Shown here one piece after another: positions 37,482 through 64,000 of a stretch of DNA of 64,000 nt. The notes beneath the pieces were generated by a model. It was not told the origin of the DNA. It did no database searches and saw only the letters and a list, made by a program, of their open reading frames with translations. Origin of the DNA: an uncultured Ectothiorhodospiraceae bacterium (GTDB taxonomy: Bacteria; Pseudomonadota; Gammaproteobacteria; SZUA-152); assembly GCA_964401355.1 (NCBI GenBank), contig CAYNYJ010000002.1, positions 6,116 through 70,115 of the forward strand. Reading direction: 5' to 3'. The translations under genes were made by a program, and so were the position numbers. Numbering within the stretch: the first letter of the stretch is position 1; each line of letters opens with the position of its first letter.

Positions 37482-37483
37482 TT

Positions 37484-41980: not shown

Positions 41981-42004
41981 ATAGAGTCGCTTATGTGTAG
42001 TGTG

Positions 42005-42037: not shown

Positions 42038-42221
42038 GTCATAGAAACCACAAGGAATTGAGCGGATATGAATTAATTTTGGGGGCATATGCATTAGTTT
42101 ATAATAATATTAAAATAAACAATGTTATTGGTGGAGAATTCTCTGCTATTCTCGTTAGCCATCTGATGCCCTTTTCGATGAAATCCGTCGGCGTCCATCG
42201 ATCAGGCTGAATTCCCGAATG

Positions 42222-42392
42222 TTTTTAAGGGCACCTCTAATAATTCTGGATGTGTCAGCTTGGGATTCAAAATTCGTCGATTCAAGGCGTGAAACGCAGG
42301 CAATAGCTAGCTATTGGCAAGTTTCACAACGCAGAAGCGGCGGATTTTGGGTTCAAGATGCGCATTCACGAATTATTAGAGGTGCCCTTAAG
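42222..42392. repeat. MITE/REP-like palindromic element: 20-bp terminal inverted repeats (GGGCACCTCTAATAATTC ... GAATTATTAGAGGTGCCC) enclosing nested palindromes, including GCAATAGCTAGCTATTG
   Basis: Read directly from sequence. The core palindrome is shared with the element at about 10142. The element sits in the act-pet intergenic region. Confidence 0.55.
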
Positions 42393-47048: not shown

Positions 47049-47084
47049 TTTTCCGCAAGCGGTAAACGCAATTCGCGTCGTCGA

Positions 47085-47687: not shown

Positions 47688-47698
47688 ATCGACTTATT

Positions 47699-47774
47699 TT
47701 CCGTCATTCCGGCGACGACCGGAATCCAGGAGCCCTCTAACGTCACTGGATTCCGGCATTCGCCGGAATGACGG
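47699..47774. repeat. REP-like nested palindromic element (CCGTCATTCCGGCG ... CGCCGGAATGACGG with an inner ACCGGAATCCAGG / CTGGATTCCGG) in the gspH-gspI junction
   Basis: 14-bp perfect outer inverted repeat plus an inner inverted repeat, read directly from sequence. Confidence 0.55.
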
Positions 47775-47796
47775 CAAAAGAACCAATCAGCATTTT

Positions 47797-48177
47797 TTGA
47801 ATGGTAAAAAAAATAAAAACTGCAAAGGCTTCACCCTGCTGGAAGTCCTCGTGGCCCTGGCGGTGATTGCCTTTGCGTTGGCCGCTGCCGCCAGCGCCGT
47901 TTCCGGTAACGCCCGTACCGCCTCCGGTCTTCAACAGCGCACTTACGCCCATTGGGTGGCGATGAATAAAATGACCGAGCTGCATGTTGCCAAGAAATGG
48001 CCTTCCATCACAACCACCAAAGGCAGCTCGTTGATGGCGCGCCATGAATGGTATTGGTCGATGAAGGTTAGCAAGACGCCGAATTTGTTAATTCGCCGCG
48101 TGGACGTGAGAGTGCGCTCGGAACAGAATGACGAATCACCACTGGTGACTCTAACTGGATTTATAGGTAGGCCATGA
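47797..48177 (+). CDS. gspI: Type II secretion minor pseudopilin GspI
   Basis: A TTG start gives the classic leader MNGKKNKNCKG-FTLLEVLVALAVIAF. The track ORF starting at 47677 would read through the REP element. Confidence 0.75.
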   Translation: MNGKKNKNCKGFTLLEVLVALAVIAFALAAAASAVSGNARTASGLQQRTYAHWVAMNKMTELHVAKKWPSITTTKGSSLMARHEWYWSMKVSKTPNLLIRRVDVRVRSEQNDESPLVTLTGFIGRP

Positions 48178-48806
48178 TGATGCGTCGCTGCTTTAATAAA
48201 CAAAACAGGAAGCAAGGCGGTTTTACCCTGCTGGAATTATTAATAGCGTTGGGAATTTTTGCCTTGCTGGCGGCAATGGGTTACAGCGGTCTTAGCAACG
48301 TGATGACGGCTCGCCAGATAACCAGCCAGCACGCCGAACGTTTAGCGCAATTGCAGATGGCCTTTTTATGGTTAGGTCGGGACATTGAGCAGGCTATTGA
48401 TCGTCCGATTCGTGATGAGTACGGTGATACCCGCCACGCCATGTTGGGAGTGGAGACCGGGCGCTATCAACTGGAACTGACCCGTAATGGCTGGCGCAAC
48501 CCGGCGGGGCGTGCGCGCAGCAGTCTGCAACGCGTGGCCTACGGATTGCGTGATGGCGAGTTGATTCGTGTTTACTGGAACGTGTTGGATCGCGCCCAGG
48601 ACAGCCAGCCATTGGAGAGCGTGCTGCTGGTGGGAATTGAAAAGCTGGAACTGCGTTTTCTCAATGATAAAAACCAGTGGCAGGCCTCTTGGCCAAGCAG
48701 GCAATTGGGTGGCCGGGCGAGTACCACGCCGCCCAGAGCGGTGGAGGTGACGCTGGAGACCGTGGCTGAGGGGCGTATCACCCGTTTGTTTCGGGTGCCC
48801 GGTTAA
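48174..48806 (+). CDS. gspJ: Type II secretion minor pseudopilin GspJ
   Basis: QGG-FTLLELLIALGIFALLAA prepilin-type N-terminus, 210 aa. Confidence 0.8.
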   Translation: MMMRRCFNKQNRKQGGFTLLELLIALGIFALLAAMGYSGLSNVMTARQITSQHAERLAQLQMAFLWLGRDIEQAIDRPIRDEYGDTRHAMLGVETGRYQLELTRNGWRNPAGRARSSLQRVAYGLRDGELIRVYWNVLDRAQDSQPLESVLLVGIEKLELRFLNDKNQWQASWPSRQLGGRASTTPPRAVEVTLETVAEGRITRLFRVPG

Positions 48807-49894
48807 TGATGTCTTTTTCTAAAAACACGCTGAAGGCTCCTTATAACAACACGCTGAAGGCTTCTTGTAACAACGCGCTGAAGGCTCCGTGCGGAAAACA
48901 ACAGGGCGTGGCGCTGATCACGGCGTTGCTGATCGCGGCGCTGGTGACGGTGGTGGCGGTGGCCATGGCCTCACGTCAGCAGTTGGATATTCGACGCACC
49001 GGCAACATGCTGGAAGCGGATCAGGCCTACCTTTACGCCCTCGCCGCAGAAACCTGGGCGATGCAGATGTTAAAAGAGGACCAACAAAAAACTTCGATTG
49101 ATGCTCTGGACGAAGATTGGGCAATCAAGCTGCCGCCGATTCCCGTCGAAGGCGGCATGATTAGCGGCAGTATCGAAGATTTGCAGGGCCGCTTTAATCT
49201 TAATAATCTCGTTAATGCAAATACGGGCAACAATACGGGCAACAATACGGGCAACAATGCTGGCAACAACGCAGGCAATAACGATGCTCCGGATCAGGTG
49301 CAGGTTAAAATTTTTCAGTCGTTGTTGGTGCAGGTCAGCCGGGCGAAAGAGGAGATGCAGCTTTCGCCCTTCGTGGCCAACCGGGTGGCTGACTGGATCG
49401 ACTCCAACCTCAACTCTTTGGCCGATGGTGCCGAAGATCTGGTGTATCTCGGTCTAGATAAGCTGCCGTATCGGACGGCGAATCGATTTATGGCCAGCCC
49501 CAGCGAGTTGGCAGCGGTGGCAAGCCTGTCACTGAGGGATGTGGCTGCCTTGTTGCCGTTAGTGGCCGCGTTGCCCGAAAGGACACCGGTCAATGTGAAT
49601 ACCGCGCGGGAGGAGGTGTTGCTGAGTTTGCATGAGGATATCAGCCTGTTGATTGCCAAGGAGCTGGTGGCATATCGTGTCGACAGCGCATTTGAGAATG
49701 TGACGGATTTTGTGAAAAAAATGAAGGATGATTACGACATTGCTCTGAACCCAACATTAGTCAGTGTCAGCAGTGAATACTTTCTGGTTTCCAGCGACGC
49801 GGCTATTGGCCGCACCACGCTACGCCTGTACAGTCTGTTAGCAAGAAAAAGCACGGGCATCCGTGTCGTGAGCCGAGGAATCGGGACGTATTAA
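48806..49894 (+). CDS. gspK: Type II secretion minor pseudopilin GspK (with two internal tandem-repeat tracts)
   Basis: QQGVALITALLIAALVTVVAVAMAS is a GspK-type N-terminal helix, and the product is 362 aa. The gene is start-stop coupled to gspJ (TAATG). Confidence 0.8.
   Translation: MMSFSKNTLKAPYNNTLKASCNNALKAPCGKQQGVALITALLIAALVTVVAVAMASRQQLDIRRTGNMLEADQAYLYALAAETWAMQMLKEDQQKTSIDALDEDWAIKLPPIPVEGGMISGSIEDLQGRFNLNNLVNANTGNNTGNNTGNNAGNNAGNNDAPDQVQVKIFQSLLVQVSRAKEEMQLSPFVANRVADWIDSNLNSLADGAEDLVYLGLDKLPYRTANRFMASPSELAAVASLSLRDVAALLPLVAALPERTPVNVNTAREEVLLSLHEDISLLIAKELVAYRVDSAFENVTDFVKKMKDDYDIALNPTLVSVSSEYFLVSSDAAIGRTTLRLYSLLARKSTGIRVVSRGIGTY
48827..48902 (+). repeat. 3 x 24-nt tandem repeat (ACGCTGAAGGCTCCTTATAACAAC) encoding NTLKAPYN / NTLKASCN / NALKAPCG at the 5' end of gspK
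   Basis: Read directly from sequence. Confidence 0.8.
49220..49279 (+). repeat. 5 x 12-nt tandem repeat (AATACGGGCAAC and variants) encoding (NTGN)3(NAGN)2 inside gspK
   Basis: Read directly from sequence. Confidence 0.85.
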
Positions 49895-49937
49895 TGGACG
49901 TCTTTACATACACAGGCGTTTCTAAACAAACATAAAT

Positions 49938-51272
49938 ATGCGCAAACAACTTTTCATTCAACTGCCTGTGGCGACGGTCGAATCGCTGGGCACCGACAGC
50001 GAAGCCGCCATGGACCTGCCGGCCAGTTGGGTGCTGCGCGACGTAGATCGTCCTGCGGGCGCTCTGTTTCACGGCAGGCTTAAGGACGCCGTTACCCAGG
50101 CTGTGGGAGCGCGGGTTAGCGTGCTGGTGCCAGGAGCGGATGTATTACTGGCACAGGTTGAACTGCCGACGATGAAGGCGCAGCGGCTGGCCAAGGCCGT
50201 GCCTTTTGCCCTGGAAGAACAGTTGACCGAGGACGTTGATGAGCTGCACGTGGCCATCGGCCAGCGTGATGCGCGGGGCCGGATAGCCAACGCGGTGGTG
50301 TCTCGCCGTCGGCTGGAAGCGTGGCTGGCGCAGCTCAAGGCCGCTGGCTTGCAAGCGGACGTGATGACTCCTGAAATATTTGGCGTGCATTGGGACGCGG
50401 ATGATACGTCCGGGCAGGCGAGCTGGTCGATGATGATCGACGATCAAAACGGTCTGTTGCGCACCGGGGCCCAAACCGGCCTGGCCTTTGATATGCGCAA
50501 TCTGATGCCAGTGTTGAAGGCCTGTATCGATGAAGCGGGTGACACGCCTCCGGCGTCCTTGCAATTGATTTTTTGTACGGATGCCAGCAGCGATGCGGGT
50601 AACGGCAGACGCTTTAGCGATTCCGATCAACACCGTGCCCTGGTGGAACTGTGTGCCGAACAGAACATCGATTTATCGTTACGCAGTGAGAGCGAAACAC
50701 GTAGCGTGATGCTGGCGCAGGGTTTTAATGAACAACACGCCATTAATCTGTTGCAGGGCGATTACAGTCGTAAACAGCAATTGGAAAAGTTGCTGCGCCC
50801 GTGGCGACCCGCGCTAATCCTGGCCGGACTGTGGTTGCTGTTACAGGTGGGCATGTTCACCCTGGAATACAGTCGTTTGTCGAGCCAGGACAGTGAGCTG
50901 AAAAAACAGATCGAAACCGTGTATAGCGAGGCCTTTCCGCAGTCGCGTAATATCGTGAATCCCAAGGTGCAGATGCAACGGGGTTTGGAAAAATTGCGCG
51001 GTGGCGGTGCTGAAAACGATGGCCTGTTATCGTTGTTGGCGCGCACTGGTGCGGTGCTCAAAGACACTCCGGGCGCACGTCTGCGCACCCTGCGATTTAA
51101 AAATAACAAACTGGATCTGGATGTGGAAATGCCGGACTTGCAGAGTCTGGACAAACTCAAACAGCGTTTGAGTGACGAGGCCAAGCTCAAGGTTGAGATC
51201 GTTTCGGCCTCTTCCCGCGAAGGTAAAGTTGAAAGTCGTTTGTCGTTGCAGGCTGCGGGAGGTGGACAATGA
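49938..51272 (+). CDS. gspL: Type II secretion protein GspL
   Basis: 444 aa with a cytoplasmic actin-like domain, a single TM helix (LILAGLWLLLQVGMF) and a periplasmic domain. Its position follows gspK. Confidence 0.75.
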   Translation: MRKQLFIQLPVATVESLGTDSEAAMDLPASWVLRDVDRPAGALFHGRLKDAVTQAVGARVSVLVPGADVLLAQVELPTMKAQRLAKAVPFALEEQLTEDVDELHVAIGQRDARGRIANAVVSRRRLEAWLAQLKAAGLQADVMTPEIFGVHWDADDTSGQASWSMMIDDQNGLLRTGAQTGLAFDMRNLMPVLKACIDEAGDTPPASLQLIFCTDASSDAGNGRRFSDSDQHRALVELCAEQNIDLSLRSESETRSVMLAQGFNEQHAINLLQGDYSRKQQLEKLLRPWRPALILAGLWLLLQVGMFTLEYSRLSSQDSELKKQIETVYSEAFPQSRNIVNPKVQMQRGLEKLRGGGAENDGLLSLLARTGAVLKDTPGARLRTLRFKNNKLDLDVEMPDLQSLDKLKQRLSDEAKLKVEIVSASSREGKVESRLSLQAAGGGQ

Positions 51273-51757
51273 AGACCTGGTTTAACGGTCTCGAAGCTAA
51301 CGAGCGTCGCATGTTGATGGTTGCTGCCCCGTTATTGCTGGCAATGTTATTTTATGTGGGTGCCTGGGAACCGTTGAACGATACCGTGGACTCCCTGCGG
51401 GTGAGCACCGCCGAGCAACAATCTTTGCTGGCCTGGATGCACAGTGCGGCACGGGAGGTTAAACAACTGCGTGCTCGCAGTACTCAACGCGCCAAGCCGG
51501 CCAGTGGCGGGTCATTGCTGAGTCTGGTGGATCGTACGGCTAAGTCTGGCCGCCTGGGCCCGGCGCTGAAACGGGTGCAGCCCGATGGCGATGATAAAGT
51601 CCGGGTGTGGCTGGAGTCCGCGAGTTTTGATGATATGGTGCGTTGGCTGATTGTGCTGCAAAATCGTCATGGGGTGCGCGTGGTCAGCAGTGTGTTCCAG
51701 GCGCTGGAAGAGACCGGGCGTGTGGATGCGCGTCTGGTGTTTGAGACGGACAGTTGA
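51269..51757 (+). CDS. gspM: Type II secretion protein GspM
   Basis: 162 aa with an N-terminal TM helix (MLMVAAPLLLAMLFYVGAW). The gene is translationally coupled to gspL. Confidence 0.7.
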   Translation: MKTWFNGLEANERRMLMVAAPLLLAMLFYVGAWEPLNDTVDSLRVSTAEQQSLLAWMHSAAREVKQLRARSTQRAKPASGGSLLSLVDRTAKSGRLGPALKRVQPDGDDKVRVWLESASFDDMVRWLIVLQNRHGVRVVSSVFQALEETGRVDARLVFETDS

Positions 51758-51873
51758 GGCTGGTGATTGAGCCCCGGTTTTGGTAAACGTTATTTTTCCA
51801 GCCAAGCTGCGCCTAGCCCTACCAGCACAGAATCTAAAACCGATTTTTTAATACTGACGACGATATTCCTGTT

Positions 51874-52680
51874 ATGAAATTTATTCCCCGTTTCCGTCAT
51901 CTGCCGCTACTGGTGTTTGGCCTGTTGGTCTATCTAGTGGCGCTGGTGATCACCTTTCCCGCCGATCGTGCCTATGCCCACTGGCAGGCCAGCGAGCAGG
52001 CGTCACCGGCATTTCGCCTGTCGAACATTAGTGGCAGTGTGTGGTCGGGCAAGGCCGGTGTGGCGATGGTCCAGAGCCAGCCGTTGGAACATGTGGAATG
52101 GAATCTGCGGCCCTGGACGTTATTGTTCGGCCAAGTGGGGCTGAGTTGGCGCTTTCAACTGCCTGCTGGAAATGAAAAAAAGGTGCAAGGCTACGGGCAG
52201 GGCACGACGGCTTTGGGGCTGGATGGCAGCGTGGCCTTTTCCAACCTGGAGGCACGTCTGCCGGCTGCCATGATTGCCGACATTGCCAAGGCCGGTGCCT
52301 TGCGTCCCATCGGTTCAGTGAGTCTGAACTTGCACGATGTGGTGTGGGATGGGCAAAGCCTGGTGACGGTGACGGGGCGGGTCGTTTGGCACGGCGCCGG
52401 GATTAGCCTGCTCAAACCGATAGCCCTGGGCGATCAATCGCTGACCTTTGAGACCGCCGATGGGATCGTAAAGGGTGTGCTCAGTGACGGTGGCGGGCCC
52501 TTGTCGCTGGATGGCCTGTTGACGCTGACGCCCAAGGGACAGTACGCATTCAATGGCAGCCTTGCCGCGCGTAATGCCCCGGATCTCGAACGTGCGTTGC
52601 ATTCATTGGGGCGTGCCGGGGTGGATGGCCGGATTACACTCAAGCGCTCGGGCAGTTTGGCGGGTTTGGGGCTGATTTAG
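51874..52680 (+). CDS. gspN: Type II secretion protein GspN
   Basis: 268 aa with an N-terminal TM anchor. It is the last gene of the gspG-N block. Confidence 0.6.
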   Translation: MKFIPRFRHLPLLVFGLLVYLVALVITFPADRAYAHWQASEQASPAFRLSNISGSVWSGKAGVAMVQSQPLEHVEWNLRPWTLLFGQVGLSWRFQLPAGNEKKVQGYGQGTTALGLDGSVAFSNLEARLPAAMIADIAKAGALRPIGSVSLNLHDVVWDGQSLVTVTGRVVWHGAGISLLKPIALGDQSLTFETADGIVKGVLSDGGGPLSLDGLLTLTPKGQYAFNGSLAARNAPDLERALHSLGRAGVDGRITLKRSGSLAGLGLI

Positions 52681-53236: not shown

Positions 53237-53854
53237 TTAATGCAGCGGTTCCATTTCGATAAACTCGCCGGTATCCTGCACCACGCCATCGGCCTGCGCA
53301 TCCATGTAGCTTACATAGGCCTGCGGGTCATCGGCGTCAACAGGCACACCCGTGTCCTGGTGCGCAGCATTGCCATCCACATACATTTGCGGATTATCAA
53401 CATCGATAAATTCGCCCGTGTCTTGAATATCGCCCTGAGTGACGGCGCTGTTTGCTTGGGCATTCAGATAAACGACATAAGCCTGCGGGTCATCGGCGTC
53501 GATAAATTCTCCCGTATCTTGCACCAAGCCATCGTCAGCGGCATAGACCCCAGCATCGGGCCATGCCTCGTCCATCGGCAAGAGCGCGGGGAGTTCCGAC
53601 TGTGGGCTGGCAGTCACCGAATCCGACGGTGGCCCGCCGAAGGCGTTCCCGGATTCGACCGGCGCTACGGCAGGCGGAAAAATACTGGCCACCGTTTCCT
53701 CACCGGCTGCCTGAGGTAGCACAACATGCGGCGCATCGCCATGTCTTTGGTCATCAGCTTGGTCATTAGTGATGAAATACCACGACCCGGCCCCCGACAC
53801 CCAGCCGACCAACAGCGCAACAATAATTGGCCGTATTTTATTCATGGGCTGCAT
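53237..53854 (-). CDS. Membrane-anchored acidic repeat protein (QDTGEFIDADDPQAYV repeats)
   Basis: N-terminal TM helix IIVALLVGWVSGAGSWYF, then four copies of a (Q)DTG(E/V)(F/P)(I/V)D(A/V)D(D/N)PQ(A/M)YV motif. The start overlaps the upstream gene's stop by 1 nt. Confidence 0.55.
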   Translation of the reverse strand: MQPMNKIRPIIVALLVGWVSGAGSWYFITNDQADDQRHGDAPHVVLPQAAGEETVASIFPPAVAPVESGNAFGGPPSDSVTASPQSELPALLPMDEAWPDAGVYAADDGLVQDTGEFIDADDPQAYVVYLNAQANSAVTQGDIQDTGEFIDVDNPQMYVDGNAAHQDTGVPVDADDPQAYVSYMDAQADGVVQDTGEFIEMEPLH

Positions 53855-55959
53855 TAATTCACCCTGTCACTGGAAAGCAGACGAATCACCGCCGCTTCGT
53901 TGACCGTCGGGTTCCTGCCCGCGCTCACCTCGTTGCCATCCGTCACGCCATCGGCATCGCTGTCCGCCTTTTTGGGATCACTGCCCCATTGAGATTCCTG
54001 GAGATTGCTCAATCCATCGCCATCGGCATCCAGCGCCGCATCGGCCGGATTGTTGGGGTTAAACCCATAGCGCGCCTCAAAACCATCCGACAGGCCGTCG
54101 CCATCCGTGTCCGCCCTGTCCGGGCGCGTGCCGCGACGGTATTCGTCGATATTGCTCAGGCCGTCGCCATCGGCGTCCGCATCGGCATCGTCCACGTTGA
54201 CATCCAGGCCATAGGCATTTTCAAAACTGTCCGGCAGACCATCGTTGTCCGTGTCACCCATGCCGTCGCCCATCAACACCACCGCAAACACCGCCGCCTC
54301 GCTCACGCTTGGGTTCCGTCCCTGCTGATACTCCGCCAGATTGCTTACGCCATCGCTGTCTTTATCCAGACCTGCATCGGCGGGATCGAGGTGGTCCAGG
54401 CCATGCACTATTTCAAAACCATCGGGCATGCCGTCGCCGTCGCTGTCCGCAGAAGACGAGCGTGGATCGGTGCCGTTTTGGTATTCCCGCAAATTGCTCA
54501 GGCCATCGCCATCGGCATCCAGATTGGCGTCACCAGCGGACATGGGATTAAACCCCTGCTGCAACTCCCACACACTGGGCATGCCGTCGCCATCTGTATC
54601 TACGCCGGTTTCGCTCAGCGCCAGCACCCGAATCTGCCCCGGCACAATCACGCTGCTTTTTGTTGCATCGGTCGCCGCATCGGTAATGAAAATACTAAGA
54701 GGAAAGGCCCCGGCCACCGAGGGTGTGCCCGCCAGCCGCCCCGTTGCCTCATTGAGTGTTATGCCCGGCGGCAACTGCCCGCCTGCCAGCCCCCAGACGT
54801 ATGGCGTCTGGCCACCGCTCGCCACGGGCGTAAAACCAAAGCTGCGGTTGAGCAGCGTCTCCCTGACGAAAGACAGGCCCCGGAGGCTATCGGGGCCATC
54901 CTGGTTTAGCGTCCAGCCATCGGCCACAGCGGCATCGGTGCCCAACAAAGGCTCGACGGCATCGGGAATCCCGTCGCCGTCCCCGTCCGCCAGTGTTGTT
55001 GGCGGCAGGGCGCGCAGGGCCAGCGCGGTTTGCAGGGCATCCCCGCCCCAACTGCCGTTGCTGGAATTCTGGCTGGCGGCCAGAAAATCACGCGCCAAAT
55101 TCATCGCCGTCGCGGCGTTAATCGCCTCAGCAATGCCCACCTCCGTGGCCGCATCCAGCGCAATCAGCGCCAGCGCCGTTTGTTGGGCGCTCCCTGTAAC
55201 TACGTCGTCTGTATCAAGAAAAGCGTTATCGACCTGTTGTCGACTCAGCAACCAGTTGACGCCCCGGCTGATGTTGGAACTGACGTCCCAACCGATAGCG
55301 GAATAGTGGCTAAGCATCACCAGCGCATGACTGGTAGGAAGAATATGGCCCGAAAAAGAAGAACTCCTGGCGGAGAATGTCCAGCCAGCGTCACCGGCAT
55401 ATTGTAACCCGCTGATAATGCTGAGGGAAATACCCGCATCTGGATAGTCGACGCCGGAAACACGCAACGCCTCCATCGCCAGCGCCGTATCCAGCGCCCC
55501 CACCTGGTAACCGTCGAAGCTGCCCCAGCCTTTTTGCGTATTGCGCAACGCCACCAGGGCCGAGGGCAGACCGGCGGCCCGGGTATCCATGCCTGCGGCC
55601 TCCAGGGCGATAATCTTGCGCGCCAGGGCATCGACGCTGTTGGTGTGGGCATTGGCCAGCCAGGAAACCCCTCTCGAATACACCGCCCCGTGGCCAACGC
55701 CAACGTGGCGCAGGGCCGCCAGGGCCTCAGCGGTGGCCGCGACCGTTGCGCCGCCTTCGCCCGCTGTTGTTCCACGCACTGTTCCCCGCACTGTTCCCCA
55801 ACTACCGTCCTGGTGCTGCTCTGCCAACAGCCAGGCAAGGCCTCGCTCCCGGGCCGTATCAACCGTGGCGGTCACCGCCAAACCGACAGTGGCCCCCAGG
55901 CAAAGCACCGTGGCTATTAACACCGACCCGAAAACCCGGCGACCAGTTTCTTTTCTCAT
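53854..55959 (-). CDS. Secreted protein with prenyltransferase/terpene-cyclase-like alpha-alpha toroid repeats and C-terminal thrombospondin type-3-like Ca-binding repeats
   Basis: Signal peptide MRKETGRRVFGSVLIATVLCLGATVGLA. Multiple DxDxDGxxDxxE repeats (DTDGDGMPSVWE, DADGDGLSNLREY, DSDGDGMPDGFE, DKDSDGVSNLAEY, DTDNDGLPDSFE, DADGDGLSNIDEY, DTDGDGLSDGFE, DADGDGLSNLQES, DSDADGVTDGNE). Confidence 0.6.
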   Translation of the reverse strand: MRKETGRRVFGSVLIATVLCLGATVGLAVTATVDTARERGLAWLLAEQHQDGSWGTVRGTVRGTTAGEGGATVAATAEALAALRHVGVGHGAVYSRGVSWLANAHTNSVDALARKIIALEAAGMDTRAAGLPSALVALRNTQKGWGSFDGYQVGALDTALAMEALRVSGVDYPDAGISLSIISGLQYAGDAGWTFSARSSSFSGHILPTSHALVMLSHYSAIGWDVSSNISRGVNWLLSRQQVDNAFLDTDDVVTGSAQQTALALIALDAATEVGIAEAINAATAMNLARDFLAASQNSSNGSWGGDALQTALALRALPPTTLADGDGDGIPDAVEPLLGTDAAVADGWTLNQDGPDSLRGLSFVRETLLNRSFGFTPVASGGQTPYVWGLAGGQLPPGITLNEATGRLAGTPSVAGAFPLSIFITDAATDATKSSVIVPGQIRVLALSETGVDTDGDGMPSVWELQQGFNPMSAGDANLDADGDGLSNLREYQNGTDPRSSSADSDGDGMPDGFEIVHGLDHLDPADAGLDKDSDGVSNLAEYQQGRNPSVSEAAVFAVVLMGDGMGDTDNDGLPDSFENAYGLDVNVDDADADADGDGLSNIDEYRRGTRPDRADTDGDGLSDGFEARYGFNPNNPADAALDADGDGLSNLQESQWGSDPKKADSDADGVTDGNEVSAGRNPTVNEAAVIRLLSSDRVN

Positions 55960-56008: not shown

Positions 56009-56386
56009 CTACTTGTAGATATCTATCCGTCGCGCATAGCAATAACCATTGTGTTTTTTGGTGTTATCCACGTAGAGGGTGACTCGATAACCCAGCGCCA
56101 GCGCCAGTTGCGCCGACTCGAACTTGCGTTGGCCGGCATCCTTGTTGTTGTAAGTGCCATCGCAACTGAAGGTCAGCCAACGGCTGGGGCAGTTGGCGAT
56201 ATAGTCGCTTAGCGGTTTGTCGATCAGGATCATGCAGTCACCAAGAGACCCCGCATCACTGAGCGTTTGAGTCACTTTGACCCCGCTAAACCACACCACT
56301 TCAGCACTCGCCACCCCGGAACCCAGCACCGCCAGACCTGCCACCGCACCCAGAAACACCTGCTTCCACCGGTTCCACTTCAACAT
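56009..56386 (-). CDS. Small secreted cysteine-containing protein (about 125 aa), possibly a lectin/toxin-B-subunit-like protein
   Basis: Signal peptide MLKWNRWKQVFLGAVAGLAVLGSGVASA. Four Cys in the mature part. AAGGAGG ribosome-binding site 6 nt upstream of the ATG. It is the first gene of a three-gene minus-strand operon. Confidence 0.5.
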   Translation of the reverse strand: MLKWNRWKQVFLGAVAGLAVLGSGVASAEVVWFSGVKVTQTLSDAGSLGDCMILIDKPLSDYIANCPSRWLTFSCDGTYNNKDAGQRKFESAQLALALGYRVTLYVDNTKKHNGYCYARRIDIYK

Positions 56387-56883
56387 CGCTAACCTCCTTA
56401 TCTGTCTGTCATGGCCTGCTATCGGCCAAAAAATTCTATTGGTTTGATTGCTCACTGTATTTCACAAACTGTATTTCACAATAAGAACCCAATATCGGCA
56501 AGCCAAACCAAGTTCCTCGTTTGGTAGGTTGGTGGTGAGCCTGCGAACCCCAACACGACCGGTTCCGTTGGGGTTCGCAGGCTCACCACCAACCTACCCG
56601 CAAACACCATTTTATTCACTATGCCAGCATTGGTCTAGCGCCCTTTTTAAAGCAAGGCTTGTGACGCTCTTCACATGGCGCCCAGGCGGCACAACCCACA
56701 CGATGTCCATGAAAATACGGTAATCCCCCACCCAGGAGAAGTGTAAATATTACCATAAATTAATTGTGGCTTATGTGATATGTTTCGGCCAATGCCCGAT
56801 GCCGTGGCTGTTCCTGTTCCTTAAAGCAGGCAACGCACCAGGGCTGAGCAGTAGGGGCTAAACACAGGAGTAACAGGGACGAA

Positions 56884-59800
56884 ATGATCATGCGGACAAA
56901 GGCAAAGCGTGGGTTTCAGGTCACTCCGGTAACGACGGCAATTGTTGCCGTTGTGGCCATCACCCTGGTGGTTATCGCGACCGGGCCGGTATGGCGTGCG
57001 GACGATACCGCGCCCGCTCATGAATCACCTGTCGCCACGGCCCCCGGTGCAAATTCTGGCGGAAAGAATGCCCGAACCCCGGCGACTGCTGAAACAAAGG
57101 CGGCCATGCTCGACGCGGATACGCTGCGCCAACGGGTCGCCGGGGCCTGGCTGGCCACCGGTAAACCAGACAGAGCCAGTGAGCTAAGCTCCACGCTCGA
57201 CCATCATCTGGCGGATACTCGGCAACTGTTGACGCGACTGGTGTTGCAACGGGAAAGCGCCAGCGGACAATCGTCCCGGCACATCCTGCAACAGATCGCC
57301 TCCAAACAGGCCGAGTTCCTGACCCTGCGCGAGGAGGCCGAACGCTGGCTGGCCGACCACGACATGCAGGGTTCCGACCGGGCTTTGCAAATCACGCAGC
57401 GTTTCGAGCAGGTGAAAAGCGTACTCGCAGCCGTCATCAACACCACAGGCAACACTCCTCGCGACGCTCCTCACGACGCTCCTCACGACACCCAGACCCA
57501 AGCCATTGCGGCGGCGCAACAAACCCTGCAACGGCTGCATCCACCCCGCATCGGCATGCGCGGCGAACCCCAGCCAACGGTGACCCAGGGCGAACCCACC
57601 CAACTGACCCCGGACGATTTTCCCAATGCGCCTCCGCCCGCCTATGCCGCGCCTTCCGCGCCATCGGCAGCGATAAAGCAATCCACCACAGCCCCTATAG
57701 CGGGAACCCGCGTTGATTCCTTTGCTAACAGGTTTGGAGAGGAACTGTTCGGGGTCTTGAGCCGGTCGGTCGGCATCTCCACCGCCCACGCCGATGTGCT
57801 ACCTGCCACTCCGGCAGAGGCCGCCAGTTGCGGTTATGTCACCGCCGATGTCGCTTCGGCCCTGCCGGAGGTCGATGTCACCAATCTCGAAATCCAGGCC
57901 CTGGCCGAGCAACTGCAACACTCACCCCTGAAAATCTACGCCTGGATCAAGAACAACATCGAATTCCAGCCCTATTTCGGTTCCCTGAAAGGCGCTCTTG
58001 CTACCTTGAAAAGCGGTTCCGGCAATGCTACGGATCAGGCCTCACTGTTAATCGCGCTGATGCGCGTGTCCGGGTATCCAGCGCGGTATGTGTTGGGGGA
58101 AATTCGGTTGCCCGAGGATGATCGCTTGCTTAACTGGATTGGCACCACGGCGGGCAAAGGAGCGGCCGCCAGATTGTTCGCGAATCAAATCCCGACAACG
58201 TACTACACAAATACCGGTGGGGTAGCGTTCACCCATGTCTGGACAGAAGTCTGCGTGCCTTACGACAATTACCGGGGCAGCGGCAATGATAACAGCGGTT
58301 TTCACTGGATTCCGTTGGATCCCAGTTTCAAGGAGATGGCTTACACCGACGGCACCACAGTGGCCGGTATCCCCGGTTTTGAATTCGATTATGCCGATTA
58401 CCTCAGCACCCGCACCACGGTGATGCCCCACGAGGCCCTGCGGGACCAGATGGAAGCGGCGCTGGGCAAATCGCTGAAGCACGGCGGCGGTTACCGGGGC
58501 GCGATAGTGCAACGGGATATCGACATCCTGCCCAGCACGTTGCCTTACATAGTCAATAATTTTAAGGCCTGGGCTGGCAGCACGGCATCCGATACGGCGG
58601 CGCTGCCCGCGGCCCACCGGATTCAGGCGGAGTTTGTGCTCAAAAATGCCTCCAACGGGCCATTGGCGTCTGTGCTTACTCTCGATATGCCCACACTCGC
58701 CACCCGGCGTCTTACCCTGTCTTTCGAGGGCGTGACATCCACCGACCAAAGCTGGATTGATAACACTTGGGATGGCGAAACAACGCCCTGTGGCAACAGT
58801 AACGTACAAGCGCTCTTCAAGTTGGAAGGAATCGATGTCACCCCGGCAGGCACCCGCGATGCGGTCGATTTTTGCACCAGGAATAATCGGCTCGGCATCA
58901 CCATCCGCCGTAATAGCGTGGTCTACAACAGAGTCAACTACCAAAACATCGGCGGTCACAACTATCATGCCCTGCAAGCTTATGCCTTTCATGCCTCCGA
59001 CCGTCTGCTGGAGGAGCGTGCCGCCAAGTTGTTGACTACCGTCGGTACCACGCCAAACCCCAACGCCTTGCAGGACGAAACATTGGGGGAATACCTGCAT
59101 ATTGTGGGTCTGAAATACATGGGCTACATCACTAATGCCTTCAAAACCGTCGGGGAACTTCATGAGGCAACCGGCGACAGCGGTCACCACATCGGTTTGA
59201 CCTCCACTGCCATGAAGGTGAGCTACTTGTTTGATCTACCCTTTGCGGTCTCCCGAGGGGGGTTATTGGTGGATGTGCCGGGCGGACAATCCCGTAGCAC
59301 CAGTATCAACGACGGCACACCGAACTTCGCCACCTTCTTGCTCAGTGGTTATGCCGCTTCCGCCTACGAATCCTACATTTGGCAGGAACACGCTTACCTG
59401 GATGCCGTGAGTACCGTGCGGGGTATTCAATACGCCAATGATCAGAGTGTTCCGGTGGTCACCCTGGTCAGCGCAGCGGATGTAGACAATAAATTAAACC
59501 AGTCCTGTTCCACAACGCCTCGAAGTCTTATTTATTCTGAATCACTCAAAGCTCCCCTCAAACAACTGTTTAGCAGTGGCTATTTCAGGGTCACGTTGCC
59601 TGGTTGTCTGATTCATTATGATGACTGGCTCGGAGCTGTATGGGTTGCGGAATACAATGTAGACAATGTATTTAAAGCAAGTTACAAAATCTCCGGCAAT
59701 TATGTCCTCGCTGACGGCGGTTACACCCTCTCCACCCCCGTCCCTTTGTTCTATGAAGGCGCACGTGACACCGGTTATCAGAATTACATGCTGCCATCGA

Positions 59801-62800
59801 TATCCAACGAACTTTTCCGCGCTCCCACCGGCAATACGACATTTAGCATCGTCAGCGCAGGCAATGGTTCCGGCACCGGCCTAACGCCTAGCACCAGCTT
59901 CGGCGGTGACCCCGTTAATTTGGTTTCCGGTAACATGTACACGCAGGAGCGGGACATCGACCTCAAGGGCCGCGGTGGCCTGAACATCGTCTTCGAGCGT
60001 TTTTACAATTCCCACGTTCGCAAAGACGGCCCGCTGGGCTACGGTTGGACCCACAGCTTCAACCATTACCTGAAATTCTTCGACGATAATAATGACGGTA
60101 ATGGCGACGGCAACATCAACCGCGTCATCTGGGTGGACGGCACCGCCAGCACTAACAGCTTTTCCGTGGCGGGTACGGCCAGTGGCGTGCCGCTCGACAC
60201 CACACTGACCAACCCCAAGGGCATTTACGTGACCGCCCGGCGTGAGGCCAACGGCGAATATCGTATTCGCGAAAAAGGTGGGTTGACGCTGTATTTTGAA
60301 AATATGCCCGGCAGGGCAGGGGACACCGCCCGCCTGCTACGTCTCGTCGACCGCAACGGCAACACCCTGCGTATGAACTATGGCAATAACAACAGCGGCA
60401 CCAATCTCACCTCGGTACAGGACGACATCAATCGTCGTCTGACGTTTTATTACGATAACGGCGATCAGCACATCACCCGCGTTACCGACTGGAGCGGCCG
60501 CACCTTTCGTTACGCCTATGCCAATAACAACCTGGTGGGTTTTGATTCGCCGCTGGCGGTGGAGGGCCAGATCGGCTCGACGGTTTACCATTATTACACC
60601 GCCGCCGATGGCACCAATCTCGACCACGCCATGGCGTCCTTCACCCGCCCGACGGGTTATTCGATGAGCTTCGAGTATTACACCAACGGCAAAACCTTCC
60701 GCCACACCGACAGCCTGGGCCAGAGTTTTACCTTTCGGTACAACACCTTCCGCCGCGAGACCACCACGGTGGATGAGCGCGGCATTAGCCAGACTTATTT
60801 GTTCAACGAGTGGGGCCAGCAGCTTCAGCATGTGCGTGGCGACGATTCGCGGGCGCGGTACGAATACACCGACGACGCTCATCCACTGAAAGAAACCCGG
60901 CGCATTCATGCCCTGGGCTATGTGACGCAAAACCGCTATGACGCAACGGGCAATCTGACCCAATCCACCTTGCCCGATGGCAGTACGCAGGCATATTTGG
61001 GCTATAACGCCTTCGGTTTGCCCACCCAAATCACCGACGCTAACGGTAACGTGACGCTGCATCGTTTTGACGCCAACGGCAATCGCACCGATACCATTAC
61101 GCTGAAAAAGGGCCGCACGGTGGCGACCCCGGCCACCACTCCGGCCTCCGGTGATGTCCTCGCCTGGACCATCAATACTTACGATAGCAGTGGCAATCTG
61201 AAAACCACCCAACAAGTGCGTGATTTTACGACCGTGGCCGGGCCGACGATTGAATACAGCTACGACGGCTCTCAGCTAAACCCGACCACTATTAAGCGCT
61301 GCGGCCTGCAACACGACGTTTCTTCATTGCCTGATGGCGCCCTCACCAACCGCTGCGTGAGCGTGGCGCAGAGCTTCGACACCCTGGGCAGACCCACAAA
61401 AATCGCCACCAATAATTTCTACACCCGGCTACGAAACTACGACGCCAATGGCCGCGTTACACGCGCTACCGACGCTACAAACCGCTGGCGTGACTATAGC
61501 TACAATGCCAATGGCCAGCCCGCGGGCCAAAGCCTGGCCGGGGTCGATGCGGATGGCAATGTCGCTCTGCTCGATCACGGCAGTACCGCGTTTGATGACC
61601 TGGGTCGCCCCGTCAGCCGTTTTGACAGCGCCGGTTTCGGCACTCACACGGCATACGACGAAACCGGTAACGTCACCGCCATCACCAATCCCGATGGTTA
61701 CACCGTGCGCTTTGAATACGATGGCATGAACCGACCCACCCGCGCCTTTGATGAGCACGGCCACGCGGTCAGCACCGATTACGACATCGGTGGCCGACCT
61801 ATCAAAGTCACCGATCCCAACGACAACAGCACGGTGTATGATTATTACGAGGCCGCAGAAAATGGCCGCCTCAAACGCCTCATCCAGGCCGATGGCCAGT
61901 GGCGGGAGTATTTTTACGACCGCAACGGTAACGTGATCAAAACCCGCGACAACGCCAACCGCGAAACCCGCACCGATTTCGATGCCTTGAACCGGCCCAT
62001 CCGCAGCGTCGGCCCGGTGCATAACAGCCACAATCTGAACAATATCCGCCAGGTGACCGTCACCGATTACAGCGAACTCGGCACTGTGAAAAACATCAGG
62101 GCAGGGTACACCGCCAACACCAGCGGCAGTTCTGGTGGCACCCCAGGCAACGATGTGCTCAGCACCCAGGCCACTTTTGCCTACGACGACTTCGGTCGCC
62201 GCATCCGCCAGCTTGATGCCAACGGCAAGGCCACCCAAACCCTCTACGACGATTACGGCAACCCCGTGCGCAAAACCTCCCCCAACGGCCACATCGTCGA
62301 ATGGGCCTACGACCATGCCCGCAACGGCTTATTGACCAAACAGACCGCCAAAACCTCCGCCACCGACGCCAGCCCCCACGTCACCACCACCGCCTACAAT
62401 GCCCTCGGTCAGGTGAGCAAAGTCACCAGCCCCGAGGTCATTTACACGTATCGTTATGGCCCGGACAACCGCCTCAAAACCGTCACCGACAGCCGCGGCA
62501 ACAAGACCCTAAAATACACCCGCAGCCCCGGCGGCCAACTCACCGCCATCGCCGACAGCGATGCCAGTGGCAACCCCAACGGCCACCGCAGCGATTTTCT
62601 CTACGACGCCGCCCGACGTCTCACCGCCATTACCACGACCCCTAAATCCGGCAACAGCGAGCAGATCAACTTCCTGCTTGACGCCGGTGGCCGCCTGCAA
62701 GAAACCAACCTCCCCAACGGCGTCAGCGCCCGGTATCAATATGACGCCGGCAACAAACTCACCCAACTGGTTAACCGCACCCGCCAGGGCGTCATCAGCC

Positions 62801-64000
62801 GACATAACTACGATTATGATGGCGTCGGTCGCAGAACCACCCACACCGAAACCATCGCCAACAAGACCACCCATTATGGTTATGCCTACGACAACCTTGA
62901 TCGTCTCACAAAAGTCCTCAACGGCAGCACAAGCATCGAAACCAGCACCTACGATCAATACAACAACCGTCGCAGCCGCGCCTTCGCCACCACCAGCGGC
63001 AACATCACCCACTACTACCAGCATGACGCCGCCCAGCAGCTCAACCAAATCCTCACTGGCTCCGACACCGGCAGCGAAGCCGCCCGCTTCCAATACGACA
63101 ACAACGGCAACCTGACCTATAAAAACGAAAACGGCGTAACACGCAGCTACACCTACAACGCCCTCGAACGGCTGAAAAAAGTCGAAAGCAGCGACATCAA
63201 CACCGAAAGTTACCGTTACGACCCGCAGGGGCGACGCATCGAAAAAACCGTTGCAGGCACAACAAATACCACCACCCGCTACCACTACAGCGGCCAAAGC
63301 CTCTGGGCCGAGTACCAAAGCTGGGGAGAAGCGCTGGCCCACTACACCTACAGCGGCCTCGACCGGCCCATCGCCCGAACCACCCCCACCGCCGCCGACA
63401 CCCGCTACTACCACCACGACGGCCTAGGCTCCCCCATCGCCGTCAGCGACACCAACGGCAACATCACCGCCGCCACTCGTTTCGACGCCTGGGGCAACAA
63501 AATAGCTGCCCTCGGTGGCACCACGCCCCACTTCGGTTACACTGGCCAAGTCCCCGACGCCAATGGGCTGATACATTATCGGGCAAGGTATTACGATCCG
63601 AGCATAGGGCGCTTCACCCAGCGTGATCCGGCGGGGTTTTCCGATGGGATTAATTTGTATGCGTACGTGGGTAATTCGCCGACGAACTTTACTGATCCGT
63701 TGGGGTTGGGGAGGTTGGCGGTGGGGGCTACGGGCGGGTTGGGGTCTTCGTTTCCGGGGGATAGGGGTGGTAGTTCAGCGATAGATAATTCAAATAATTA
63801 TCTAGTTGGTCGGCCTCTAAGTTTTTCAGATAGTGCTGGTCATTTGTTTGTTGTAACAGGCGCAAACCATATAGGTGACCCTAATGCATTAATCTATTCT
63901 TTTGGTGATTCTGGTGGTGATACTTTGTCCATTGTGACGAATGAAACATCAGGTTTCTCTGAGGGGGCGCATCAAAGCGACATTAACTATTGGCAATCAC
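56884..64000 (+). CDS. Giant Rhs/YD-repeat polymorphic toxin, 3'-partial (more than 2372 aa). Domain order: N-terminal TM anchor, Pro-rich linker, transglutaminase-like domain with the catalytic Cys replaced, beta-rich region, dozens of YD/RHS repeats, RHS core (DPLGL) and the start of a low-GC C-terminal toxin module
   Basis: Hand-translated continuous frame-1 ORF with no stop up to the window end; it is absent from the ORF track because it has no stop. Transglutaminase-like motifs: GSGNATDQASLLIALMRVSGYPARYV and HVWTEVCVPY...GFHWIPLDPS. Repeated YxYDxxGR(L/V) motifs run throughout. RHS core YYDPSIGRFTQRDPAGFSDGINLYAYVGNSPTNFTDPLGLG is at about 63590-63715. Confidence 0.85.
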   Translation, partial: MIMRTKAKRGFQVTPVTTAIVAVVAITLVVIATGPVWRADDTAPAHESPVATAPGANSGGKNARTPATAETKAAMLDADTLRQRVAGAWLATGKPDRASELSSTLDHHLADTRQLLTRLVLQRESASGQSSRHILQQIASKQAEFLTLREEAERWLADHDMQGSDRALQITQRFEQVKSVLAAVINTTGNTPRDAPHDAPHDTQTQAIAAAQQTLQRLHPPRIGMRGEPQPTVTQGEPTQLTPDDFPNAPPPAYAAPSAPSAAIKQSTTAPIAGTRVDSFANRFGEELFGVLSRSVGISTAHADVLPATPAEAASCGYVTADVASALPEVDVTNLEIQALAEQLQHSPLKIYAWIKNNIEFQPYFGSLKGALATLKSGSGNATDQASLLIALMRVSGYPARYVLGEIRLPEDDRLLNWIGTTAGKGAAARLFANQIPTTYYTNTGGVAFTHVWTEVCVPYDNYRGSGNDNSGFHWIPLDPSFKEMAYTDGTTVAGIPGFEFDYADYLSTRTTVMPHEALRDQMEAALGKSLKHGGGYRGAIVQRDIDILPSTLPYIVNNFKAWAGSTASDTAALPAAHRIQAEFVLKNASNGPLASVLTLDMPTLATRRLTLSFEGVTSTDQSWIDNTWDGETTPCGNSNVQALFKLEGIDVTPAGTRDAVDFCTRNNRLGITIRRNSVVYNRVNYQNIGGHNYHALQAYAFHASDRLLEERAAKLLTTVGTTPNPNALQDETLGEYLHIVGLKYMGYITNAFKTVGELHEATGDSGHHIGLTSTAMKVSYLFDLPFAVSRGGLLVDVPGGQSRSTSINDGTPNFATFLLSGYAASAYESYIWQEHAYLDAVSTVRGIQYANDQSVPVVTLVSAADVDNKLNQSCSTTPRSLIYSESLKAPLKQLFSSGYFRVTLPGCLIHYDDWLGAVWVAEYNVDNVFKASYKISGNYVLADGGYTLSTPVPLFYEGARDTGYQNYMLPSISNELFRAPTGNTTFSIVSAGNGSGTGLTPSTSFGGDPVNLVSGNMYTQERDIDLKGRGGLNIVFERFYNSHVRKDGPLGYGWTHSFNHYLKFFDDNNDGNGDGNINRVIWVDGTASTNSFSVAGTASGVPLDTTLTNPKGIYVTARREANGEYRIREKGGLTLYFENMPGRAGDTARLLRLVDRNGNTLRMNYGNNNSGTNLTSVQDDINRRLTFYYDNGDQHITRVTDWSGRTFRYAYANNNLVGFDSPLAVEGQIGSTVYHYYTAADGTNLDHAMASFTRPTGYSMSFEYYTNGKTFRHTDSLGQSFTFRYNTFRRETTTVDERGISQTYLFNEWGQQLQHVRGDDSRARYEYTDDAHPLKETRRIHALGYVTQNRYDATGNLTQSTLPDGSTQAYLGYNAFGLPTQITDANGNVTLHRFDANGNRTDTITLKKGRTVATPATTPASGDVLAWTINTYDSSGNLKTTQQVRDFTTVAGPTIEYSYDGSQLNPTTIKRCGLQHDVSSLPDGALTNRCVSVAQSFDTLGRPTKIATNNFYTRLRNYDANGRVTRATDATNRWRDYSYNANGQPAGQSLAGVDADGNVALLDHGSTAFDDLGRPVSRFDSAGFGTHTAYDETGNVTAITNPDGYTVRFEYDGMNRPTRAFDEHGHAVSTDYDIGGRPIKVTDPNDNSTVYDYYEAAENGRLKRLIQADGQWREYFYDRNGNVIKTRDNANRETRTDFDALNRPIRSVGPVHNSHNLNNIRQVTVTDYSELGTVKNIRAGYTANTSGSSGGTPGNDVLSTQATFAYDDFGRRIRQLDANGKATQTLYDDYGNPVRKTSPNGHIVEWAYDHARNGLLTKQTAKTSATDASPHVTTTAYNALGQVSKVTSPEVIYTYRYGPDNRLKTVTDSRGNKTLKYTRSPGGQLTAIADSDASGNPNGHRSDFLYDAARRLTAITTTPKSGNSEQINFLLDAGGRLQETNLPNGVSARYQYDAGNKLTQLVNRTRQGVISRHNYDYDGVGRRTTHTETIANKTTHYGYAYDNLDRLTKVLNGSTSIETSTYDQYNNRRSRAFATTSGNITHYYQHDAAQQLNQILTGSDTGSEAARFQYDNNGNLTYKNENGVTRSYTYNALERLKKVESSDINTESYRYDPQGRRIEKTVAGTTNTTTRYHYSGQSLWAEYQSWGEALAHYTYSGLDRPIARTTPTAADTRYYHHDGLGSPIAVSDTNGNITAATRFDAWGNKIAALGGTTPHFGYTGQVPDANGLIHYRARYYDPSIGRFTQRDPAGFSDGINLYAYVGNSPTNFTDPLGLGRLAVGATGGLGSSFPGDRGGSSAIDNSNNYLVGRPLSFSDSAGHLFVVTGANHIGDPNALIYSFGDSGGDTLSIVTNETSGFSEGAHQSDINYWQS

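Follow-up and report, generated by a model that had tools for sequence, protein, structure and literature searches.

A transglutaminase-fold domain without its catalytic cysteine in an Rhs toxin, and the secreted toroid protein encoded beside it

What can a transglutaminase-like domain be doing near the N-terminus of a large toxin when its catalytic cysteine is gone? The question is raised by a gene for an Rhs-type polymorphic toxin found in 64,000 nucleotides of DNA from an uncultured Ectothiorhodospiraceae bacterium (contig CAYNYJ010000002.1, positions 6,116 to 70,115; this whole stretch is called the window, and all positions are counted from its first letter). A preliminary description of the window, made from its sequence alone, had proposed that the toxin contains a probable pseudo-enzyme or binding module, in an arrangement unusual for Rhs proteins, and had suggested a Pfam alignment and structural modelling as checks. 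The answer that we develop here is that the cysteine is missing throughout a large family, that the toxin gene has a nearly constant partner gene, and that the module probably serves for docking, together with the protein encoded by this partner.

The open reading frame (ORF) of the toxin is in forward frame 1, and stays open from position 56848 to the end of the window. Its likely start is the ATG at 56884, with AGGAG upstream, which gives a gene at 56884..64000 (+) of which at least 2372 amino acids are visible, the 3' end lying beyond the window. The three peptides quoted in the preliminary description are all read in this frame: GSGNATDQ at 58015, HVWTEV at 58234 and IPLDPS at 58309. They hold the positions of the catalytic triad: an alanine at the nucleophile site (58027-58029), a histidine (58234-58236) and an aspartate (58318-58320).

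The domain to which these residues belong, at 57811..58347 on the forward strand (Pfam envelope 57919-58323), matches the profile Transglut_core (PF01841) over toxin residues 346-480, with an E-value of 3.7e-16 and a score of 59.8 bits for a cut-off of 23; the match covers positions 16-108 of the 108 positions of the profile, and is far beyond chance. In alignments made by phmmer, with the single sequence and with the family profile, to PDB entry 3isr_A, a transglutaminase-like putative cysteine protease of Cytophaga hutchinsonii, the alanine of the motif G-N-A-T-D falls opposite the cysteine of G-V-C-R-D. The assignment of the histidine and the aspartate is based on the Pfam profile, whose last position is reached at residues 479-480, in the L-D-P motif, and on the topology of the model presented below. 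A pairwise BLAST comparison with a fragment of the core of human TG2 was not significant (E=0.22, with only W-x-x-L-D-P aligned), and is not used as evidence.

The 711 residues encoded by 57748-59880 were modelled with AlphaFold2 (AF2) from an alignment of 121 sequences; Ala94, His163 and Asp191 designate the three triad positions in the numbering of this model. The model has a predicted local distance difference test score (pLDDT) of 89.2 and a predicted template modelling score (pTM) of 0.89, and the pLDDT exceeds 94 nearly throughout the transglutaminase region, with one loop at about 67. Ala94 opens a helix that runs from 94 to 107, strand 159-171 contains His163, and strand 185-190 is directly followed by Asp191: this predicted topology has the layout of transglutaminases and papain-type enzymes. 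When the model was compared to the PDB with Foldseek, the matches were 3isr and PeiP, with probability 1.0 each, followed by TG3, FXIII and TG2, and otherwise nothing notable; the weak matches include the protein 4.2 complexes 8cs9_X and 7tvz_E. Owing to the length of the query, 711 residues, this search gave E-values of only about 1e-3, and the sequence identity to the active transglutaminase-like peptidases, 3isr and PeiP, is 12-23%. Against viral structures, Foldseek returned a single match of the size of the transglutaminase core; the remainder of the module matched nothing.

The Pfam alignment and the topology of the model agree with the preliminary description, which had recognized a transglutaminase-core homologue with alanine in place of cysteine, and with the downstream histidine and aspartate motifs retained. 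Since the nucleophile position is occupied by alanine, the domain cannot act as a thiol enzyme. The protein of the window is a homologue of the transglutaminase superfamily whose Cys-His-Asp triad is incomplete, the cysteine being replaced by alanine, and not an active thiol enzyme; we consider it highly probable that the domain has no catalytic activity at all.

Is this the recent accident of one gene, or a property shared by its relatives? Three independent sets of sequences were used to answer. Among 118 relatives gathered by a search of 5.8 billion proteins, the position of the cysteine is occupied by D (53), A (39), P (13), S (8), E (2) or V (1), with 3 gaps, while the histidine is kept in 108 of 119 sequences and the aspartate in 112 of 119. 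At 87 genomic loci, the counts are A 42, D 21, P 13 and S 10, the histidine being kept in 84 and the aspartate in 86. The third set, 133 further representatives at 50% identity, has D 68, A 56, P 3, S 3, E 2, N 1 and G 1, with the histidine kept in 124 of 134 sequences and the aspartate in 129 of 134. The preliminary description had named a cysteine aligned to the nucleophile position as the observation that would speak against it: there is none in the window protein, none in the alignment to 3isr, and none in the 118, 87 and 133 relatives of the three sets, about 340 in all. No chemical function is conserved at this position across the relatives.

The rest of the domain tells a different story. 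The alignment of the 711-residue module contains 28 nearly invariant residues, and 27 of them are inside the transglutaminase domain; they include D96, S99, R106, P111, R113, Y114, V115, H163, W165, W187, D191, S193, F194 and K195. The motifs that are kept surround the old active site: a helix with G-N-x-x-D-Q-A-S-L, then R-x-x-x-x-P-A-R-Y-V, H-V-W-x-E and W-x-P-L-D-P-S-F-K. Across several phyla, the transglutaminase domain is the best-conserved part of the toxin protein. A dead active site within the best-conserved part of a protein points to a pseudoenzyme that is kept for binding, and not to a decaying relic. The loss of the cysteine is a trait of the family, and no recent accident of one gene; the domain is a family-wide pseudoenzyme, and the interpretation as a pseudo-enzyme or binding module given in the preliminary description fits both the absence of the cysteine in the whole family and the strong conservation of what remains.

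A few relatives, about five sequences, have a different motif, Q-C-N-x-F-D, in which the usual glycine, two residues upstream of the place of the old nucleophile, is replaced by a cysteine. They are found at L003:7947-11030 and L082:5763-8906 in the set of loci, and in proteins P0063, P0072 and P0080. This cysteine could be a relocated nucleophile, or noise.

The transglutaminase domain is embedded in a protein whose other parts, all on the forward strand, can be delimited as follows. A hydrophobic segment of 22 residues, V13-G34 (56920..56985), is preceded by the basic stretch MIMRTKAKRGFQ and reaches a Kyte-Doolittle maximum of 2.51 in a window of 19 amino acids; by its composition, it is a predicted Sec signal peptide or signal anchor. 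A comparable hydrophobic segment is present about 250 amino acids before the transglutaminase domain in most relatives. In the window protein, the segment is followed by a spacer of about 275 amino acids (56986..57810), which contains linkers rich in Pro and Ala and a stretch that is probably helical. The distance from the transmembrane (TM) segment to the transglutaminase domain is roughly constant among relatives, with a median of about 250 amino acids, and the family profile over the spacer has weak, compositionally biased matches to the coiled coil of EnvC (8tzk_E) and to ATP synthase subunit b, from which we infer that the spacer is a helical stalk.

On the other side of the transglutaminase domain, and packing on it in the AF2 model, comes a conserved region of about 480-490 amino acids (58348..59817) made of beta-sandwich-like sheets and long helical hairpins. 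Then begins the RHS part proper. DUF6531, at 59905..60108 (PF20148, residues 1008-1075, E=1.8e-18), forms the N-terminal edge of the RHS region, and is known as the plug of the RHS shell. The RHS/YD-repeat shell extends over 60109..63483, with 10 RHS_repeat stretches in Pfam (E=1.1e-59) and a match to YD_repeat_2x in NCBIfam (E=6e-38), and the Rhs-associated core over 63484..63708 (TIGR03696, residues 2201-2275, E=7.2e-23). The Pfam match to RHS (PF03527), near residue 2190, has an E-value of 7.7e-06 and 26.1 bits, just under its own cut-off of 27.9. The core ends in DPLGL (63694-63708), the usual self-cleavage boundary ahead of the toxin, after which about 97 amino acids of the variable C-terminal toxin domain (63709..64000), in which neither Pfam nor NCBIfam has a match, are visible before the window ends.

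The protein thus combines, in Pfam, Transglut_core, DUF6531, ten stretches of RHS_repeat and RHS, and, in NCBIfam, YD_repeat and Rhs_assc_core. With its RHS/YD repeats, DUF6531 at their N-terminal edge and a core containing DPxGL, it has the attributes of an Rhs/YD-repeat polymorphic toxin, and the transglutaminase domain is, as the preliminary description stated, in the N-terminal part of the toxin and upstream of the RHS shell; it is also upstream of DUF6531. The Pfam scan detected no PAAR, VgrG, DUF4150 or other type VI secretion system (T6SS) domain in the protein, nor a Tc-type leader, and there were no T6SS genes among the window ORFs scanned. By these scans, the toxin does not belong with the T6SS-delivered Rhs effectors: it lacks a PAAR/VgrG-type N-terminus, and the window ORFs scanned give it no T6SS linkage.

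How much of this architecture is constant in the family? With the family profile, relatives are matched over a stretch that begins at about position 15 and ends at about 840-920, so that the transglutaminase domain is part of a conserved unit of four parts and no free-standing insert: the hydrophobic N-terminus, a spacer of about 250 amino acids, the dead transglutaminase, and the region of about 480 amino acids. This last region, which is conserved across the family, was also modelled alone by AF2, with a pLDDT of 89.6 and a pTM of 0.89; in the model of the whole 711 residues (with the same pTM of 0.89) it packs with the transglutaminase domain. A Foldseek search of the PDB with its 486 amino acids returned no structural relative, the best E-value being 0.43, and it can thus be assigned to no fold.

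What follows the module varies widely. Short relatives, of about 1000-1250 amino acids, carry NlpC/P60, M23, M15, a deaminase of the BURPS668_1122 type, Ntox16, DUF6310 or Big_1, and in many relatives that lack RHS the cargo is attached directly to the module. Long relatives, of about 2400-2590 amino acids, have DUF6531 and an RHS shell, then a C-terminal toxin: AHH, WHH or LHH nucleases, Colicin-DNase, EndoU, NucA/NucB, Tox-URI2, Tox-REase-7, Ntox44 or PT-HINT. Behind the RHS cage there are, among others, HNH-type and colicin DNases and EndoU. A constant module with varying C-termini is the textbook pattern of polymorphic toxins, and the Rhs form of the window is one variant of it. In one locus, L002, from a Geobacteraceae metagenome-assembled genome (MAG), the toxin was called as two genes (4556-7774 and 7930-11724), namely a transglutaminase module ending in DUF6531 (1072 amino acids) and a separate RHS/YD-shell protein of 1264 amino acids; the split may be real, or may come from a frameshift in the assembly.

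The family is large. A profile search of 1.84 billion cluster representatives retrieved 4,645 of them at E<=1e-30, and a scan of one genome per species yielded 461 loci, none of them from the genome of the window itself. The organisms include Methylomonas, Methylocaldum, Thiobacillus, Sulfuricella, Geobacter, Rokubacteria and Nitrospirota, and also Acetivibrio, Bacillus-like Firmicutes, Marinifilum and Pedobacter. The closest relative, 72% identical, is encoded in a Gammaproteobacteria MAG.

Next to the toxin gene, and on the opposite strand, the window contains a gene for a secreted protein of 701 amino acids, at 53854..55959 (-). This protein has a signal peptide, and Pfam matches to SQHop_cyclase_C, TED_complement, He_PIG (an Ig domain) and calcium-binding TSP3 repeats; one of the database names under which it is found is "putative Ig domain-containing protein". 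A gene of the same kind lies beside the toxin genes of relatives from the Gammaproteobacteria MAG, the Geobacteraceae MAG, a JGI metagenome contig and Acetivibrio cellulolyticus. We therefore call it the partner. When the ORFs of the 87 loci were clustered all against all, the partner was the sole widely common family besides the toxin, in 78 loci; by profile hidden Markov model it was detected in 76 of the 87, and 10 of the 11 loci without it are contigs that are too short, or that are cut off on the relevant side. Its carriers span Proteobacteria, Nitrospirota, Rokubacteria, Firmicutes and Bacteroidota.

The order of the two genes is also well kept. The partner is directly upstream of the toxin, on the same strand, in 57 loci, and ends typically 40-130 nucleotides before the toxin's N-terminal hydrophobic segment; in 11 loci it lies on the same strand but downstream, and in 5 loci, which belong to the clade of the window, it is divergent from the toxin. 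The pairing of the toxin gene with this second gene, which also encodes a dead-enzyme protein, is near-obligatory, and is what is new here.

The N-terminal part of the partner, encoded by 54940-55959 (-), is an alpha/alpha-toroid of the superfamily that comprises squalene-hopene cyclases and the thioester domain (TED) of alpha-2-macroglobulin (A2M). The profile of its N-terminal 314 residues matches 2sqc, a squalene-hopene cyclase, with an E-value of 5.6e-34, A2M with 5e-8, and the thioester domains of A2M and complement with values from 1e-8 to 1e-4; the toroid also has QW-like repeats. The cyclase motif DxDDTA is aligned to S-x-P/L-D-T in the partner, and the general acid of the cyclases is missing because of this replacement: an active cyclase was considered, and discarded on the absence of DxDD. 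The thioester motif CGEQ was looked for in the partner and is absent. The C-terminus of the partner varies by lineage: He_PIG and TSP3 in the window, SLH in Acetivibrio, and elsewhere CarboxypepD_reg repeats or dockerin, that is, domains for attachment to the cell surface or to a scaffold.

Transglutaminase domains that are inactive have been described computationally in polymorphic toxins (Zhang, de Souza, Anantharaman, Iyer and Aravind 2012, Biol Direct 7:18). In the layout given by these authors, a transglutaminase domain that has lost a catalytic residue lies near the N-terminus, "immediately" after a signal peptide, with RHS repeats and then toxins of variable type on its C-terminal side. 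They placed "Inactive transglutaminase" in the class exported by Sec and the type II secretion system (T2SS), concluded that it has no peptidase activity, and proposed a peptide-binding, surface-anchoring role; in the same work, "Transglutaminase" is listed among the processing proteases for Ntox10 and Ntox13 toxins. The toroid partner gene is not mentioned there. Our searches of the literature for an experimental study, or for a link to the partner, returned only this paper as relevant; a 2026 paper on a methanotroph S-layer was set aside, as Rhs and transglutaminase appear only in unrelated rows of its tables.

By the features described, the toxin of the window likely belongs with the set of Zhang et al. 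2012. A triad residue is lost, and there are RHS repeats with variable C-terminal toxins; at the N-terminus, residues 13-34 form a TM or signal segment, but only about 300 amino acids later does the transglutaminase domain start. Given this earlier description, the 461 loci in species-representative genomes and the roughly 4,600 sequence clusters, the arrangement is not unusual for Rhs proteins, and on this point the preliminary description has to be amended. Taken alone, the transglutaminase feature is a further example of an architecture predicted in 2012, and leaves the field unchanged.

It is natural to ask what role the module could play. With a probability of about 60%, we propose that it is a non-catalytic docking unit that anchors the toxin at the surface together with the toroid partner. 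The toxin would first be exported by Sec; the stalk, the dead transglutaminase and the 480-residue region would then serve as the docking unit. Its ligand, a peptide or a protein and plausibly the toroid partner or a peptide of the cell wall, would be bound in the cleft that once received the substrate. The anchoring domains of the partner (TSP3 here; SLH, dockerin or Ig-like repeats elsewhere) would fix the complex on the surface of the producer, and the Rhs cage, or the bare toxin, would be presented to neighbouring cells. A transglutaminase that is conserved but without its cysteine, a constant module, the size of the family, the coupling to a partner with a signal peptide and anchoring domains, and the absence of a T6SS domain from the protein and from the window ORFs scanned are all in favour of this proposal, whose role for the domain is the same as in the anchoring proposal of Zhang et al. 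2012. Several observations weigh against it. It does not explain how a protein longer than 2,400 amino acids, once exported by Sec, would cross a Gram-negative outer membrane, and the T2SS genes adjacent to this locus are not a conserved neighbour. The histidine and aspartate are retained, and about half of the relatives have an aspartate at the cysteine position, which may leave room for non-thiol chemistry in part of the family. Finally, the domain "immediately" after a signal peptide of Zhang et al. has to be set against the spacer of about 300 amino acids found here.

There are rival explanations. As the preliminary description suggested with its receptor or cell-wall recognition, the dead transglutaminase might recognize the target cell, through a receptor of the prey or a stem peptide of peptidoglycan, with the partner as a second subunit for targeting or translocation, as in binary toxins. 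PeiP, found by Foldseek, is a pseudomurein endoisopeptidase with peptides of the cell wall as its substrates, many of the family's cargos are peptidoglycan hydrolases, and the residues of the cleft are conserved; but domains of polymorphic toxins with such a role are usually variable, whereas conservation here is highest in the transglutaminase, across phyla whose envelopes differ greatly, and attachment to the producer is indicated both by the TM anchor at the N-terminus and by the partner's SLH, TSP3 or dockerin domains. We hold this explanation to be rather unlikely. It is improbable, too, that the module and the partner are a device of export or translocation that moves the cargo over the outer membrane or the cell wall: no pore-like or ATPase component is conserved nearby, the partner alone being common to the loci, and Gram-positive bacteria, in which an outer membrane is lacking, have the system as well. 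Such a device would nevertheless account for a gene pair that is tightly conserved and operon-like, for the lack of a leader of the T6SS, type V secretion system (T5SS) or Tc type, for a region of about 480 amino acids without known fold, and for a module that serves cargos which need the target cytoplasm, such as DNases and deaminases.

Could the domain still be an enzyme with another nucleophile, processing the toxin or modifying the cell wall? Candidates exist, namely the aspartate at the cysteine position in about half of the relatives, a conserved serine five residues along the helix, and a cysteine two residues upstream, as in the few relatives with Q-C-N-x-F-D; the histidine and the aspartate are each kept in more than 90% of the relatives (92-97% and 95-99%), and Zhang et al. 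2012 place "Transglutaminase" among the processing proteases of Ntox10 and Ntox13 toxins. However, the key position is alanine in the window protein and in about 40% of the relatives, and proline or glycine in others, which makes residual non-thiol catalysis unlikely; the upstream cysteine is confined to about 5 sequences, and Zhang et al. 2012 conclude against peptidase activity. We thus give very little credence to an enzyme of this kind. Practically none is left for a functionless relic kept as a spacer: the loss of the catalytic cysteine suggests it, but it is contradicted by the conservation of the domain, the most strongly conserved segment of the protein in several phyla and thousands of clusters.

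Docking and surface anchoring thus remains the preferred role of the module, and it invites a bolder conjecture, which we put forward only tentatively: that the dead transglutaminase module and the dead toroid, similar to terpene cyclases and TED, form an unrecognized system of two pseudoenzymes for the Sec-dependent display or delivery of toxins, in Gram-negative and Gram-positive bacteria alike. The toroid would then bind the old transglutaminase cleft, or the domain of about 480 amino acids. If this conjecture is true, it would provide a delivery route distinct from T5SS with contact-dependent inhibition (CDI), T6SS, the type VII secretion system (T7SS) and Tc toxins, including for whole Rhs cages.

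The family is still of interest. It has thousands of clusters in hundreds of species; its members, Rhs toxins among other polymorphic toxins, depend on none of the delivery systems that have been well studied, and the literature searches found no experimental study of it. The value of the example is raised by the near-obligatory partner, by the 480-residue domain without a fold match, and by the occurrence of the module in many toxins without RHS; these three features outline what is possibly a distinct, and testable, Sec-dependent system of display or delivery. The partner gene is a testable handle on how Sec-dependent toxins are held or delivered, and the 480-residue domain is a further one.

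We now turn to the other genes around the pair. Upstream of the partner, at 56009..56455 (-), lies a gene for a small secreted protein that contains cysteines, about 125 amino acids long from an internal Met; it has no Pfam match, and is 77% identical to the gene in the same position at L001, the locus of the closest relative, a conservation seen for the close clade only. Immediately downstream of the partner, at 53237..53854 (-), a protein of 205 amino acids with QDTGEFIDxDDPQAY repeats, also without Pfam match, is 50% identical to the syntenic gene of L001, and its cluster is present in 5 loci. In relatives, small genes follow the toxin gene. Extra families of small ORFs, of about 194, 232 and 304 amino acids, lie between the partner and toxin genes in 14, 10 and 10 loci respectively (L013-L015, L030, L037 and related ones), and may be clade-specific accessory components.

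A run of T2SS genes, with Pfam matches to GspG, H, K, L, M and N, occupies 46590-52680 (+), upstream of the Rhs gene and with its end about 4 kb from it. It was considered as a link to export, and rejected: it is absent at the locus of the closest relative, and near the toxin in the other 86 loci there is a single GspG-like match (L065) and otherwise none. As the adjacency is kept neither in the closest relative nor in the other loci, we judge it coincidental.

The rest of the scanned window is chromosomal housekeeping, including alternative complex III, the bc1 complex, GroEL and an RND efflux pump. At 34581-44993 (+), the genes of alternative complex III (multihaem cytochrome c, molybdopterin subunit, iron-sulphur protein, NrfD, ActD and cytochrome c) are directly followed by a bc1 operon of Rieske protein, cytochrome b and cytochrome c1, and two quinol:cytochrome c oxidoreductase systems thus stand side by side. 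There are also an ORF of 745 amino acids at 24874-27111 (+) with an odd fusion of a urea-transporter (UT) membrane domain and Peptidase_M23, a LodA-like L-lysine epsilon-oxidase with LodA_N and LodA_C at 6281-8380 (-), and an ORF of 1054 amino acids at 30104-33268 (+) whose sole Pfam match is a spermine/spermidine-synthase domain in mid-protein.

It remains to situate the toxin and its partner among known systems. With the toxins of Zhang et al. 2012 the toxin shares the dead transglutaminase after a signal peptide or TM segment, the RHS repeats and the variable toxins; here, a spacer of about 300 amino acids follows the TM segment, a conserved region of about 480 amino acids is fused to the domain, and many relatives have no RHS at all. 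The other Rhs/YD-shell toxins, namely the PAAR-Rhs effectors of T6SS, TcB-TcC of the Tc toxins and the teneurins, share with it DUF6531, the RHS repeats, the DPxGL core and the C-terminal toxin, but the leader is different: instead of PAAR, VgrG, TcdB/SpvB or a beta-propeller, there are a Sec-type N-terminus and the module with the dead transglutaminase.

The active transglutaminase-like cysteine peptidases, 3isr and the pseudomurein endoisopeptidases PeiP and PeiW (8z4f), have the same core fold, and the alignment to them covers the helix of the nucleophile and the motif IPARY; they keep the Cys-His-Asp triad, while the place of the cysteine is taken by alanine in the window and, across the family, by D, A, P or S. 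Similar in principle are erythrocyte protein 4.2 (EPB42) and yeast Cyk3, which lost the nucleophile, kept the fold, and act by binding proteins, as binding or scaffold modules. They are eukaryotic, intracellular and without toxin cargo, and lost their activity independently, so the analogy is one of principle only. As for the partner, it has in common with class II terpene cyclases, and with the thioester domain of A2M and complement, the alpha/alpha-toroid and the QW-like repeats; it differs from them in being a single secreted toroid, with DxDD changed to S-x-P/L-D and no CGEQ, to which Ig, TSP3, SLH or dockerin domains are joined.

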